A stretch of DNA of 64,000 nt from Candidatus Microgenomatus sp. (GCA_020724805.1 DYGI01000001.1:8934-72933), one strand, 5' to 3'; positions 28,204 through 33,813 are shown, counted from the stretch's first letter. Translations and numbers: made by a program. Notes: a model not told the origin generated them from the sequence alone.

Positions 28204-31200
28204 TCACCGTTCTTCGAAGAACTGGCGAGAGGTGTGTGTGTCGCGGCAATCGTTGTTGTTCCGACATTGGCCATATCCTTCGAACCTTGCACCGTCTTTC
28301 ACCTGGCGAGGGTCATAGGTATTGTTCGGACCACCGGGCGGAACTACGACACGCGTGCCGCTCACGCTGTCGCAGAAGCTGTTTCTGGTACAGATACGGA
28401 GACCACTGAAAGAGGTTGGGGTTCCTCCGCTCGGGAGCGTCTTCCCCGCGCCCTCAAGCGCATAGGCGGTTTCTCCTCCAGTATAGACCGCCTTCACACG
28501 GTACACGTACACAGTGTTCGGCTCGAGCCCGGTGTCGCGGAGAACGGACGGGTACTGCGCGGGGCTCAAGGGAGGGCGTACATGCCTCGCAAAATATGCA
28601 TCAATATCGATGGGACCTCCGCCCGGCACGTTCGCAATCTCGATCCTTGCAAATACGGTGGCCACCTTTGTCGCTATGTCTTGAAACTTTGTGAATGCAC
28701 TACGGAAGACGTCGGCTATTTTCTCCGCCATATAGGTCACGCCGGTAATTCCACCGTGTATTTTTGCGTAGAAGTTATCAAGTGGAGATTTTTGGGCAGA
28801 TGAAGTGACAAACGCTACCGTGTAAGAAAGTGATCCTTCTGGAGGCAAGATGCCGCTTGAAATGCTCATGTTCCCCGGCGATCCACCGCCACTGTTTCCG
28901 GCCGAGTTTGACCATGAAATTTGGGAGAAGCTTCCTCCAGGAGGAGCGCCGGAGTTATAGTAAAAGAAATACCTCCCTTCTTCGGCTCCCGTAATGCTCC
29001 AAGGAACATTCTTGGTGCCCGGTCCAACCAGAATGGATTCGGAGAAGAAGCTCTCGATTGCGAAATTGAAGCTTGTTTCGACCGGACTTCCGTTCAAGGT
29101 TGCGGCCACGTTCACTGTGCCTCCTCCACCGCCTCCCACCGTCGCAAAGTTTGCGGTAACCGTGGCGTCCGCGCCGATGGTAAAGGCACAGGTTGCATTC
29201 GCCGGATTGGCACATTGGCCGCCGGTCCAACTTGAGAACGTGTACCCGGTCGCGGGCGCCGCAGTCAACGATACGGGGTCACCACTTGCCAATTCCGCCG
29301 CACACGTCGTGCCGCAGTTTATCCCATTGCCCGTGATGGTCCCTCCGGCACTCGGGGATTTTACGACCGAAAGCGTCACGTTAGTAGTTACGCTCACGCT
29401 ATTCGAGTTTGCGGAATATATTCTCGTAGTGGGGACGTTCGGATCAAAACGATACGCGCGCACTTCGTATGAATACGTAGTGCCGCTTGAGAGCCCGGAG
29501 TCGGCGTAGGTGACGGTCCTTCCCTTGCCTGCCGAAGGATTGGTGAAATCGTGGGCCAACGTACCGTTACGGAGAAGTTCAAATCCGTTTTCACCGCCGG
29601 AATTATCTCTAAACGAGAGGGATACCGATCCCGTTTCTATACTTGTCCATTGGAGATTTGAAGGTGTGGCTGGTTTTGTTGAAGCTCTCGCAGTCGTGGA
29701 ATACCCGCCGCACACCGTTGTCTCAGGATCGCCGCTCTCGACGCGCGGGTCGCTCCCCTTGAGGAGATTCACGCGAATGAAGGAGCATGCACGGGTACGG
29801 ACTGTGTACGTCGTGCCCTCTTCAAGCCCTCCCATACTCCATGCGTACGTATTAATGTCGCTCTCAGGATCCGTATCCTCGGGGAATGCCTGATTTACCT
29901 CCGAGAACGAAGGGTCATAGTCGTGCGTCCGGGGCTCGTAAACGCCATCGCCATCGACGTCCGCGAAGGGAGTGCTTGAGGTGCTCCGCTCGAACGAGTG
30001 ATAGAAGGGACCCATTTCGTTCTCGCGGTTCGAGTCGTTCCGCCAAGTGAGTCTCAAGGATGAGTCGCTTTCGGTTGCCACCCGCGGGTCGAGGAGGGAC
30101 GAGTCGCGTGGCGTCACCTTAATACGCTCGACAACGAAGGAGTGTTCCCTTATGGCGTTGTCTTTCCAGTTCACGTAGAGTTCACGGTCGCTCACGGGCC
30201 ACACATTGAGAAGGGATGGCGCATCGGAAGACTCGACGGCGGTGGAACACCTCTGAGCATTGCTCTGGACGCTTCCCGAGGTCATTAGGTAATAGTACGT
30301 GCCGGGCACAAGATTTATGTTTTGGTAGAAGCCGCTTCCGTTTGCGAGCTCCGGAGACGACGCTACCAGCGTCCGGCTCCCGCCAAGCACTCCCGATTCG
30401 GTGTTGCTGCGGTAAAGAGAAAGCGTGTGCGCTCCGGAAATATTCTCCCACCAACCTACGGTGATGGCGGAAGTGGTGCGACTGGAACAATTGAGAATGA
30501 TTCGTGGAAGGTCTTCCGGTTGCGTTTGCCCAGCTTTAATCACGGACTCCGCCACTTCACTTGATTTGGTCGCGCGGAGGAAAAATCCATATGTGGAATT
30601 CGAGGCAAGATTTGGTACCACAACATTATCTACAACTCCTTGTGTTTTTGCGGACGGAACAATAACTCCACTGTTTAACTCAAAGTTGACCCTTTCTACG
30701 CCTTCAGGGTTCGTGCTTTTTGTTTGCCAAAGTTCTACCTCGTCATAATCGACCGGGTTCTTGAATTCTAAGGTGAGCGACGTTCCCGTGGGATTGATAT
30801 TTGCGCTCCTAAGATCCGGCGCCGGAAGCCCAGAGAACATGATCCATCCTACACCGTCACCGCCCCACGCCTCTCCTGTGAGCACTTTATTGGTTGGGCT
30901 CCACTGAGCAGTTTCGTATTTCAATCCGTATGTAGGCTCCCCCGGTCTGGTTGATAAACTCACCCACGTTCCCGTACCGAGCTTTGCCCACCCCGAAACC
31001 GCGCCATCCGCAGTATTGAAACGCGCTTCACACGGAGCCGCGGGGCATCCCGTCAAATCTCCCGCGTTAAACGAAAGCCAGCCGGCATACGGATTCCATG
31101 CGGAACCGGAAAGCTGACCGGAGTCCTCGTCCGCCAAAATACCGTAGCCGATGGAGTCCGCCGACCGCGTGGCGTCTCCCCACGCGGACGCGATGGCATC

Positions 31201-32712: not shown

Positions 32713-33813
32713 TTACAGTTTGGAACAGCGTACTACGGGGTGAAGATTGGTCCCATCTCTTTCTCCAAAACGCACCGCCGACACGAAATGACCATCCGGA
32801 CACGTCGCCCATGTATCAACCCAGAATGCACCAAAATCTTTCCGGGTCCCACCCTCTGCCACTGGAACATCCCCCGTTGTTCCACTCCACCGGGGCGCAG
32901 TCAGATTAATGTCGGTAACGGGGCCGCCAATGGTAACGTTTCCACTCGCATCCACCCTGAATATCGGCGTATTCGCGCCTGTGGGCGCCTGAACGGTCTG
33001 AAGCGTGTATACGTCATAATGGGTGTCTTCCCTTGCATACGCAACGTTCATGAAAGGAACAAATGCCGGTCCCCCATCATCTGGAACAGTCACGGTAAAT
33101 TGGTCATACCGGCGATTTCCCGTCGAGCCACACGTCGTCGAACCGCATCCTGCGGTACGTGAAACGGAGGGTGGGTTGGTAGCCCTTACATCATCTTCAC
33201 AATCACGCGCGCTTCTCCCCACATCACAGTTCATCGCCGTGGTCACGCCGCTCGGCAATACTGCGAGGTCCGACTGAGTCCTAACCCATGCCAGCTCCGA
33301 GGTCACGGTGGGGATCGAAACTCTGAATTCTCCACTTACATCCAGCCGTGCTTCCGGATTTGAAATACCGACGCCTACATTATAGTTCGTGTAAATGCCC
33401 GACCCGCTCGGTGTCCAATAGTTGGTCCCTCCGCCAGTTCCTGTTCCAACCTTAATACCCCCCGAGGTTCCATGCTGCACCCATAATTCCCCTCCGTTTG
33501 CGGATACGTAGTAGAGACGCGCCTGCCCTCCTGCATCGCGGAACCAAACGGTGGGGCTTGCCGCATTAATCTGCACTCCAGTGCTTACGTTCCCATTCGC
33601 GTCAAACACGCCAGTTGCACTCACCGCAAAATTTCCCCTTTTTACCTGCGGTACAGTTCCCGCATTAAGCGGCGCCGCAGGCATTCCTCCCGGCGGTGGC
33701 ACGGTGGGCGGCATATACTGTGCCACAACAATCCCCGCGAGCTCGAACATGAGAACTCCCGCAAGCACAATGGTCGCGTAGAAGAACGGATTCTTCCTCA
33801 AGGAATTATTCAT
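32713..33813 (-). CDS. secreted glycine-rich protein with tail-fibre-like motifs
   Basis: Start moved to MNNSLRKNPFF (signal/TM); Gly/Thr-rich repeats and NYNVGVGISNPEARLDVSG motif reminiscent of fibre proteins. Confidence 0.45.
   Translation of the reverse strand: MNNSLRKNPFFYATIVLAGVLMFELAGIVVAQYMPPTVPPPGGMPAAPLNAGTVPQVKRGNFAVSATGVFDANGNVSTGVQINAASPTVWFRDAGGQARLYYVSANGGELWVQHGTSGGIKVGTGTGGGTNYWTPSGSGIYTNYNVGVGISNPEARLDVSGEFRVSIPTVTSELAWVRTQSDLAVLPSGVTTAMNCDVGRSARDCEDDVRATNPPSVSRTAGCGSTTCGSTGNRRYDQFTVTVPDDGGPAFVPFMNVAYAREDTHYDVYTLQTVQAPTGANTPIFRVDASGNVTIGGPVTDINLTAPRWSGTTGDVPVAEGGTRKDFGAFWVDTWATCPDGHFVSAVRFGERDGTNLHPVVRCSKL

Follow-up and report, generated by a model that had tools for sequence, protein, structure and literature searches.

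A giant FN3-rich secreted protein and a small fibre-like protein beside the type IV pilus genes of a Paceibacteria-type bacterium as candidates for host attachment

In a 64,000-nucleotide stretch of DNA from the ultrasmall bacterium Candidatus Microgenomatus sp. (GCA_020724805.1, DYGI01000001.1:8934-72933; hereafter the window), two neighbouring genes encode a secreted surface protein of 1476 amino acids (aa), here called the giant, and a secreted fibre-like protein of 366 aa, the small protein, and the gene of the giant is tightly and conservedly linked to a type IV pilus cluster. We propose that both belong to a lineage-specific adhesion module beside type IV pili, which would bind another cell or a surface and in which the small fibre would set the specificity; we give this reading a probability of roughly 0.55. 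The two proteins are good but unproven candidates for host attachment. How members of the huge and mostly uncultured candidate phyla radiation (CPR, Patescibacteria) find and hold their hosts is largely unknown, and outside the Saccharibacteria almost nothing is known (PMC11665869, PMC12206443).

Judged by its relatives, the source is a CPR bacterium of the Paceibacteria type, and its closest named relatives are Candidatus Jorgensenbacteria. Among the GTDB species representatives, relatives of the giant occur in metagenome-assembled genomes named Candidatus Jorgensenbacteria, Paceibacterota and Patescibacteria group (25-32% identity). The two genes had been picked out before in a reading of the sequence alone, and both open reading frames (ORFs), their N-terminal signals, the poly-Gly linker, the Cys-rich C-terminus and the fibre motif were all found in place. 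The pilus link, the predicted Trp-rich barrel, the family-defining C-terminal domain of the giant and the conserved-base, variable-tip layout of the small protein had been missed. Literature searches returned no description of this gene module, of the Trp-rich motif or module, or of the C-terminal domain of the giant. Coordinates are collected in Table 1; L numbers denote the relative loci and P numbers the relative proteins compared in the analysis.

Results

Linkage between the giant gene and the pilus cluster

In nine GTDB loci with enough flank (L002, L006, L007 and L009-L014) an opposite-strand ComF gene and PilM-PilN lie directly 3' of the giant. When metagenomes were scanned with the giant's C-terminal domain, 30 loci were obtained, 23 of them with at least 1.5 kb downstream, and the giant-ComF/PilM/PilN junction was present in 21 of the 23 (one with PilM but without ComF), with PilM identity going down to about 43-60% and giant identity to 25-35%. 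Between the giant and the pilus cluster the window holds only a gene for a BNR protein, a DUF6624 gene (26193-26726) and the opposite-strand ComF. The cluster itself is complete and includes two major-type pilins of 141 and 146 aa and, about 12 kb from the giant, the minor pilins (14221-16566), of which the three distal ORFs (14221-15901) were called from sequence only.

Upstream of the giant the gene content differs from locus to locus and comprises genes of the small family, genes for Por_Secre_tail-domain or BNR proteins, and unrelated genes. In 10 of the 15 distinct loci with enough flank, a member of the small family is encoded no more than 4 kb upstream of the giant.

The sequence-only reading had called the locus an island, which did not survive the comparison. 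GC at the two genes (0.52-0.57, vs 0.47-0.57 across the window) matches that of the flanks, gene order is conserved across genomes of the Jorgensenbacteria/Paceibacteria type, and the genes adjoining the two proteins include no mobile or phage genes. A horizontally acquired island was rejected, as both GC and synteny speak against it.

Architecture of the giant

Hydropathy gives a single hydrophobic segment in the giant, at the N-terminus, which reads MRITRAIAVGGTIAVIGFFALTPGVFA, followed by the predicted cleavage point and VPSAP. Behind it lies a long array of beta-rich modules, the modules compared with one another being numbered F1 to F9. With Pfam alone the match to fn3 (PF00041) is marginal, at 26.6 bits against a cut-off of 25 (best stretch residues 990-1061), and Pfam run on ten separate segments gave almost nothing and no addition to the whole-protein scan. 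Profile-profile comparison with hhalign, using module alignments built from 12 members of the giant family, showed in contrast that F1, F2, F3, F4, F6, F7 and F8 are mutually related, the best match of each module having 81-97% probability; for F8 the values are 97% with F6, 97% with F2, 96% with F4, 93% with F1, 89% with F3 and 87% with F7. F9 gave a partial match, and F5 had no internal match to other modules of the giant. The piece 1336-1400 matches the last strands of FN3. By this profile comparison the giant carries at least seven mutually related FN3-like modules. Since they are related to the Pfam-positive F8, the earlier description of the protein as FN3-rich is correct on the hhalign evidence; Pfam, with its one marginal match, would not have upheld it. 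The FN3-array protein P0006 also aligns to six places in the giant.

The B-repeat is a clear Pfam match (Flg_new_2, PF18998; 45.5 bits vs a cut-off of 23.6, residues 1092-1165) and aligns to many B-repeats of P0005. It is followed by the poly-Gly stretch GGGGGG at residues 1167-1172. The orthologue P0004 has neither the B-repeat nor the linker and beta module that follow it.

The best conserved part of the giant is its C-terminal region, which defines the family and is described in no curated library. The region begins with a non-hydrophobic, sequence-variable segment, read as helical by eye, and continues with the conserved pattern LD.YF, L.PDTVY.YRV..VY (an FN3-like piece), CTRNS[FY]C and, at the extreme end, QC..N.DCR.VGR..Q.F.E.R. 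Four Cys fall within the last 62 residues (1415, 1421, 1457 and 1463) and are conserved in all relatives. Identity in this region amounts to 81-91% in orthologues and 30-45% in remote relatives, and a profile of the C-terminal family gave only weak FN3 matches in the PDB.

Conservation has a clear polarity. The giant has orthologues at 66% and 48% identity; compared with L001, F1-F4 are 43-54% identical and the part from F8 to the C-terminus 84-91%, and compared with L002 the C-terminal 175 residues are 81% identical and the rest 48%. F1-F4 are the least conserved part of the protein and are absent from the relatives in L010, L011, L035 and L044. As conservation rises toward the C-terminus, we infer that the C-terminus faces a conserved partner and that the variable N-terminus is exposed.

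No enzymatic domain was found in the giant or the small protein in Pfam, NCBIfam, PHROGs and PDB sequence searches, and the signals of both are N-terminal, in agreement with the earlier description of two secreted proteins without enzymatic motifs. Nothing pointed to anchoring by sortase, SLH, LysM or GW modules, and the LPXTG motif and a C-terminal hydrophobic segment are both absent. The class III signal N_methyl (PF07963) gave no match for either protein, and the true pilins of the window do match it.

The Trp-rich module

The FN3-like modules of the giant are interrupted by a Trp-rich module that no Pfam or NCBIfam model covers. Other CPR proteins carry it (GWAWSENIGWVSFN ... GYAWSENIGWITFN ... 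GWAR ... WDGWI ... WAWGG..IGWLSFN) behind a signal peptide or N-terminal hydrophobic segment, in fusion with Ig/PKD, Kelch, Laminin_G_3 or CARDB domains. An AlphaFold2 model built with nine sequences is all-beta, with a predicted local distance difference test score (pLDDT) of 82-91 at construct residues 68-172 and 67 overall, and the module is predicted to be a small 8-stranded beta-barrel. Confidence in the model is moderate, and the module matches a generic meander barrel, to which OmpA-like, avidin and YceI folds match too. With the soluble eight-stranded barrels of surface lipoproteins and haemophores (hemophilin, HpuA, TbpB, NHBA and fHbp) it has only 11-21% sequence identity and no sequence-level match, and a profile of the module against PDB sequences gave a chance-level match only.

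At L030 (2211-5119) an ORF resembling the N-terminus of the small family is directly followed by an overlapping, separate 760-aa ORF with the Trp-rich module; next come a BNR gene with Por_Secre_tail and then a giant of reduced length that has the C-terminal domain. The Trp-rich module and the C-terminal domain are thus found on different proteins in some lineages. The Trp-rich-module proteins P0009, P0010 and P0013 end in similar motifs (..WRETPPPR, ..DWREIAP and ..GGIRETRP), and the giant family ends, at residues 1470-1476, in ..Q.F.E.R. These similar short ends could be a common recognition motif of CPR surface proteins, or could have arisen by chance.

The small protein and its family

The reading frame of the small protein is open as far as 33957 (414 aa). 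The start is fixed by the homologues, whose N-termini (M..L.KNPFFY) correspond to the ATG at 33813, and public gene calls likewise give 366 aa. The protein has one hydrophobic segment, N-terminal, modelled by AlphaFold2 as a helix at residues 9-30 and conserved in homologues; cleavage after it is predicted from the motif only. A pilin-like signal, considered because of a G..E spacing, was rejected: N_methyl does not match and the Glu of the helix is not conserved in relatives.

Word-index searches matched the small protein to itself alone, and a search with a concatenated alignment of the small protein, the Trp-rich module and the C-terminal domain returned only orthologues of the giant and Trp-rich-module proteins. 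Exhaustive phmmer, in contrast, gave matches to 420 cluster representatives (E<1e-3), among which 33 score below 1e-10, and the matches fall into three parts of the sequence. The N-terminal 170-210 residues match the N-termini of proteins of 300-500 aa, with the common pattern KNPFFY, hydrophobic helix, V-x-A|Q site, W/Y..PT..PPGG..P[LI][ND], Q.K.G and GTGGG..[YF]WT...GNVGIG. Residues ~120-170 match a unit that is repeated up to 17 times in proteins of 1000-3600 aa; among these relatives P0032 has 15 matched repeat stretches and a C-terminal Peptidase_S74, and P0022 (1269 aa) starts with the N-terminus of the small family and continues with many repeats. Finally, some members of the family have C-termini that match residues 257-366 and end in ..PVVKCSKL. 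This tip domain is common to P0016, P0017, P0019, P0039, P0054, P0074 and P0088 and is replaced in the L001 orthologue, P0015, P0020 and P0026. The L001 protein, the closest orthologue, is 46% identical over residues 1-169 and aligns weakly or not at all beyond. The small protein is also the fastest-diverging gene of the neighbourhood, with 38% identity vs 66-67% for the giant and the BNR protein and 98% for ClpP. At L037 (1779-4771) two tandem small-family genes precede one giant, which suggests duplication and diversification of the fibre.

The motif NVGVGISNPEARLDVSG occurs once in the small protein, at residues 145-161. The Gly/Thr-rich repeats ascribed to the protein by the sequence-only reading reduce to one G/T-rich stretch (GTGTGGGT), and there are no DNA tandem repeats. 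Its claim of a fibre-type motif fared better: the motif is the repeat unit of large fibre proteins, one of them S74-terminated, and the profile of the small family matches fibres of Bdellovibrio. The AlphaFold2 monomer of the small protein (pLDDT 72, predicted template modelling score 0.40) has confident beta domains and a disordered repeat (pLDDT <50 at 146-167), which is compatible with folding only as an oligomer and proves nothing.

Comparison with known fibres and adhesins

A profile of 37 small-family members was compared with the PDB. It matched mosaic adhesive trimer (MAT) fibres of Bdellovibrio bacteriovorus, namely Bd2133 with an E value of 1e-5, 8OL4 with 0.007, and 8OML and 8OJN more weakly, and phmmer with the single small-protein sequence found no match in the PDB. 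The profile matches centre on GNVGIG.T.P.AKLEV.G, and the repeat of the small protein aligns to GNVGIGATAPTAKLEVAG of Bd2133. The MAT fibres, such as Bd2133, Bd2439, Bd2734 and Bd1334 (PDB 8OND, 8OL4, 8OML and 8OJN; Caulton et al. 2024, PMC10769870), are trimers displayed on the surface for prey recognition; their cell-proximal N-terminal domain is invariant, their stalk is a beta-helix and their prey-binding tips vary, and their authors raise a possible interplay with type IV pili (PMC10769870).

The small family shares with MAT fibres the GNVGIG.T.P.AKLEV.G repeat, an invariant N-terminal part joined to exchangeable, unrelated C-terminal tips, and a bacterium living on other bacteria as the carrier. 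The N-terminal likeness is one of layout; the solved MAT chains span only C-terminal parts. There are differences too: MAT fibres are of ~600-1500 aa with long beta-helix stalks and belong to a diderm predator, whereas the small protein, with 366 aa and a single repeat, belongs to a CPR bacterium and its gene is paired with that of an FN3-built giant near pilus genes. The same repeat unit is found in S74-terminated tail-fibre-like proteins of phages and Bacteroidota, e.g. P0032; unlike these the small protein has no S74 domain (no PF13884), no phage match and no phage context.

The giant resembles PilY1/PilC in being a large Sec-exported non-pilin that is encoded with type IV pilus genes and suspected of a role in adhesion. 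It differs from them in having no beta-propeller or vWA domain, in being built of FN3 modules and in lying beside pilM rather than in a minor-pilin operon, and no PilY1/PilC domain was matched in Pfam/NCBIfam at E <= 0.1 with the whole protein or its segments. With the FN3/Ig/B-repeat adhesins of monoderms, such as internalin B-repeat proteins, it has in common a signal peptide, tandem beta-sandwiches and the InlB-type B-repeat; unlike them it lacks leucine-rich repeats, LPXTG, GW, SLH and LysM, and the candidate for an anchor is the undescribed four-Cys domain. The giant is not a PilY1/PilC member, a pilin or a sortase substrate.

Transcription of the module genes

An extended -10 sequence of the form TGnTATAAT precedes each of the small, giant and BNR genes. 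The element of the giant gene ends 12 nucleotides before the start codon and that of the small gene 7, which implies leaderless or very short-leader mRNAs for both; the mRNA of the small gene is probably leaderless or near-leaderless. The GGAG before the ATG of the giant would then lie at or before the start of the transcript. A stable hairpin lies 3' of both the small and the giant gene, as the earlier assignment of a terminator to each of them requires. The terminator of the giant has an A-tract/U-tract stem and was missed by a pattern scan because the U-run sits inside the stem. With a -10 element and a hairpin for each of them, the small, giant and BNR genes form three separate transcription units.

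The third gene

The BNR protein carries a C-terminal Por_Secre_tail domain above the curated cut-offs (TIGR04183, 47.8 bits vs 23; PF18962, 44 bits vs 27). Proteins with this domain lie beside the giant in L001, L002, L006, L011, L012, L017, L020, L030, L034, L037 and L038. Two of them, of ~297 aa, have no BNR repeats (L011 8851-9744 and L012 7508-8404) and also score above the curated cut-offs. At L006 there are three tandem BNR paralogues with Por_Secre_tail, two of them each followed by a duplicated 138-aa gene.

The domain is that of type A cargo of the type IX secretion system (T9SS), and the host here has a Patescibacteria-type genome. The T9SS is not known outside Bacteroidota-related lineages and requires an outer membrane, and it would not be expected in this phylum. 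No T9SS genes were seen among the ORFs examined, no search of the window having been aimed at machinery genes such as PorK/L/M/N, SprA and PorU/V.

Discussion

Proposed mechanism

We propose that the module of these Paceibacteria-type CPR bacteria, at the front end of the pilus genes and with its own genes transcribed singly, would act as follows. As a Sec-exported protein the giant would make up an extended stalk, in which some eight FN3-like beta-sandwiches would be broken up by the Trp-rich barrel and the InlB-type B-repeat. Its four-Cys C-terminal domain would meet a conserved partner, either in the cell envelope or in the pilus apparatus, and the poorly conserved N-terminal FN3 modules would point outward. 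The small protein may be a short fibre of the GNVGIG..P..KL.V family with a conserved N-terminal base and a swappable, target-binding tip, and its single fibre repeat probably drives trimerisation. The giant and the small fibre, often together with a Por_Secre_tail-type protein, would mediate attachment alongside type IV pili, presumably on the cell surface and possibly in cooperation with them, and the small fibre would be the determinant of specificity.

The locus provides concrete candidates for host recognition in the largest CPR class, with a giant stalk gene that is locked to the pilus cluster, and the fixed-base, exchangeable-tip family could be read as a marker of host range in metagenomes. 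Two recurrent domains, the predicted Trp-rich barrel and the four-Cys C-terminal domain, are absent from curated libraries. Furthermore, the sequence link to the MAT fibres suggests one fibre toolkit in unrelated bacteria that live on other bacteria.

Several observations weigh against the proposal. The three module genes are separate transcription units and share no operon with the pilus cluster, a gene of the small family is lacking near the giant in one third of the loci, and in L036 and L043 the giant is not followed by ComF/PilM. No cell anchor was found in the giant or the small protein (no LPXTG, C-terminal membrane helix, SLH or LysM). The small protein has one fibre repeat only, its link to the MAT fibres is a motif of ~30 residues with a best single stretch of 19.5 bits, and its AlphaFold2 monomer finds no fold match. 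Moreover, the window, L001 and L011 have all retained ClpP and a 159-aa membrane protein upstream; since this wider order is retained in three lineages, the synteny could be partly inherited gene order.

Alternative explanations

Frozen gene order would also account for the position of the two genes near the pilus cluster if their products were generic envelope or structural proteins, S-layer-like or part of a wall-spanning scaffold, and played no part in recognising a host. Arrays of FN3 and Ig domains are frequent in structural proteins of the envelope, the macro-synteny from ClpP and the 159-aa protein to ComF-PilMNO is conserved too, the genes have their own promoters and terminators, and the Trp-rich barrel, which many unrelated CPR surface proteins contain, could serve generally as a module for binding the wall. 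A scaffold is nevertheless unlikely in our view: the small protein combines a fixed base, an exchangeable tip and fast divergence, which is typical of receptor-binding proteins, the number of N-terminal FN3 modules of the giant varies, and the upstream side varies, yet some 30 loci retain the giant-ComF-PilM junction, at identities as low as ~25-30%.

A bolder form of our proposal, which we regard as doubtful, would make of the locus a dedicated and hitherto undescribed host-recognition apparatus tied to the pilus. The giant would dock via its four-Cys domain on the pilus or its machine, replacing PilY1 or a conduit through the wall or S-layer; the barrel would be a new CPR-wide surface module; the tip of a MAT-like fibre would set the host range, as do the receptor-binding proteins of phages and the MAT fibres; and the T9SS-type domain would be re-used for assembly or docking without a T9SS.

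Somewhat less probable again is that the giant is a part or accessory of the type IV pilus machine, either a functional analogue of the PilY1/PilC tip adhesins or a guide for the pilus, as collar or conduit, across the wall or S-layer in a cell with no outer-membrane secretin, its C-terminus docking on minor pilins or on PilN/PilO. The nearly invariant adjacency to pilM, a size similar to that of PilY1 and a conserved extreme C-terminus suited to docking all fit such a part, and so does a cluster that has four minor-pilin-like proteins and no PilY1/PilC or secretin match in the ten cluster proteins scanned or in the giant. The giant has, on the other hand, neither a PilY1/PilC propeller domain nor a class III signal, and its gene and the minor pilins are at opposite ends of the cluster, with the convergent ComF in between and the giant on a separate transcript.

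A remnant origin of the small protein or of the pair, from a prophage tail fibre or some other mobile element, is highly improbable, despite the fibre repeat in S74-terminated tail-fibre-like proteins and top Foldseek matches that are phage tail proteins, though insignificant: tblastn against 50,697 phage records gave nothing, PHROGs gave nothing for the small protein and one weak match for the giant (E 0.0011) to a family of unknown function, the gene calls ~10 kb either side of the small gene are free of phage and integrase genes, GC agrees with the flanks and the chromosomal synteny is conserved in many genomes. A phage or prophage origin was rejected on the evidence of the phage tblastn, PHROGs and the neighbouring gene calls.

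Other features of the locus

Table 1. Features of the two genes and their surroundings, in coordinates of the window
Feature	Position	Strand	Basis or remark
Giant gene, 1476-aa secreted surface protein	28204..32634	-	ORF
Giant residues 1-27, Sec-type signal peptide (..PGVFA, then VPSAP)	32554..32634	-	sole hydrophobic segment; cleavage predicted from motif
Giant residues 28-455, FN3-like modules F1-F4	31270..32553	-	hhalign, 81-97% to other modules including Pfam-positive F8
Giant residues 456-603, Trp-rich module (GWAWS..GLGWF, SAWNPYAGWLSFN, GWAKL..WVSL, EAWGGDGVGWIMF)	30826..31269	-	predicted 8-stranded beta-barrel
Giant residues 604-1084, F5 and FN3-like F6, F7 (long inserts) and F8 (Pfam fn3)	29383..30825	-	Pfam, hhalign
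Giant residues 1085-1166, InlB-type B-repeat (Flg_new_2, PF18998)	29137..29382	-	Pfam
Giant residues 1167-1285, GGGGGG linker and unassigned beta-rich module	28780..29136	-	sequence
Giant residues 1286-1476, family-defining C-terminal region	28207..28779	-	always C-terminal, best conserved part
Small gene, 366-aa secreted fibre-like protein	32713..33813 (stop codon included)	-	ORF, homologue N-termini
Small protein residues 1-32, KNPFFY start, 22-residue hydrophobic helix, V-x-A then Q (signal peptide or signal anchor)	33718..33813	-	hydropathy, AlphaFold2, homologues
Small protein residues 121-163, GTGTGGGTNYWT...NVGVGISNPEARLDVSG, one copy of the fibre (beta-helix type) repeat	33325..33453	-	motif recurrence
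Small protein residues 257-366, exchangeable C-terminal tip (NP.WS ... CP.G.FV...RFG ... PVV.CSKL-COOH)	32716..33045	-	homologue comparison
Putative extended -10 element of small gene, TGTTATAAT	33821..33829	-	read from sequence; ends 7 nucleotides before the ATG
Putative extended -10 element upstream of giant, TGATATAAT	32647..32655	-	read from sequence
Terminator hairpin after small gene, then UUUUUUGAUUU (U-run)	32672..32693	-	-17.8 kcal/mol, z -5.3
Terminator hairpin after giant, AAAAGGCCGCUC-ACU-GAGCGGCUUUU	28164..28188	-	-17 kcal/mol, z -3.8
BNR gene, 425-aa secreted protein with a BNR/Sortilin-type propeller and a C-terminal Por_Secre_tail (T9SS type A) domain	26759..28036	-	Pfam, NCBIfam
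Promoter of BNR gene	28093-28122		
Terminator after BNR gene	26725..26756	-	hairpin
ComF-type phosphoribosyltransferase	25376..26053	+	convergent with giant in relatives
Type IV pilus cluster: PilM, PilN, PilO, 95-aa ORF, PilB, PilT, PilC, two pilins, PilD, four minor-pilin-like genes	14221..25336	-	Pfam, ORFs

The 159-aa protein, encoded at 33902-34381 on the (+) strand between ClpP and the small gene, has an N-terminal membrane helix and is kept in L001 (54% identity) and L011 (38%); the precomputed calls give it no family. In L002 (6899-11408), a relative at 48% identity, a toxin-antitoxin pair of the HicA/HicB type and genes for ATP-grasp, TPR and ABC transporter proteins lie between BNR and ComF, at a site where the window has only the DUF6624 gene, and the BNR-ComF junction tolerates insertions. 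A membrane ORF of 95-97 aa between PilO and PilB is conserved and present in relatives too. Finally, a scan at the Rfam gathering thresholds found 18 tRNA genes in the 64-kb window, several of them clustered at ~45.0-45.6 kb and 49.0-49.5 kb.

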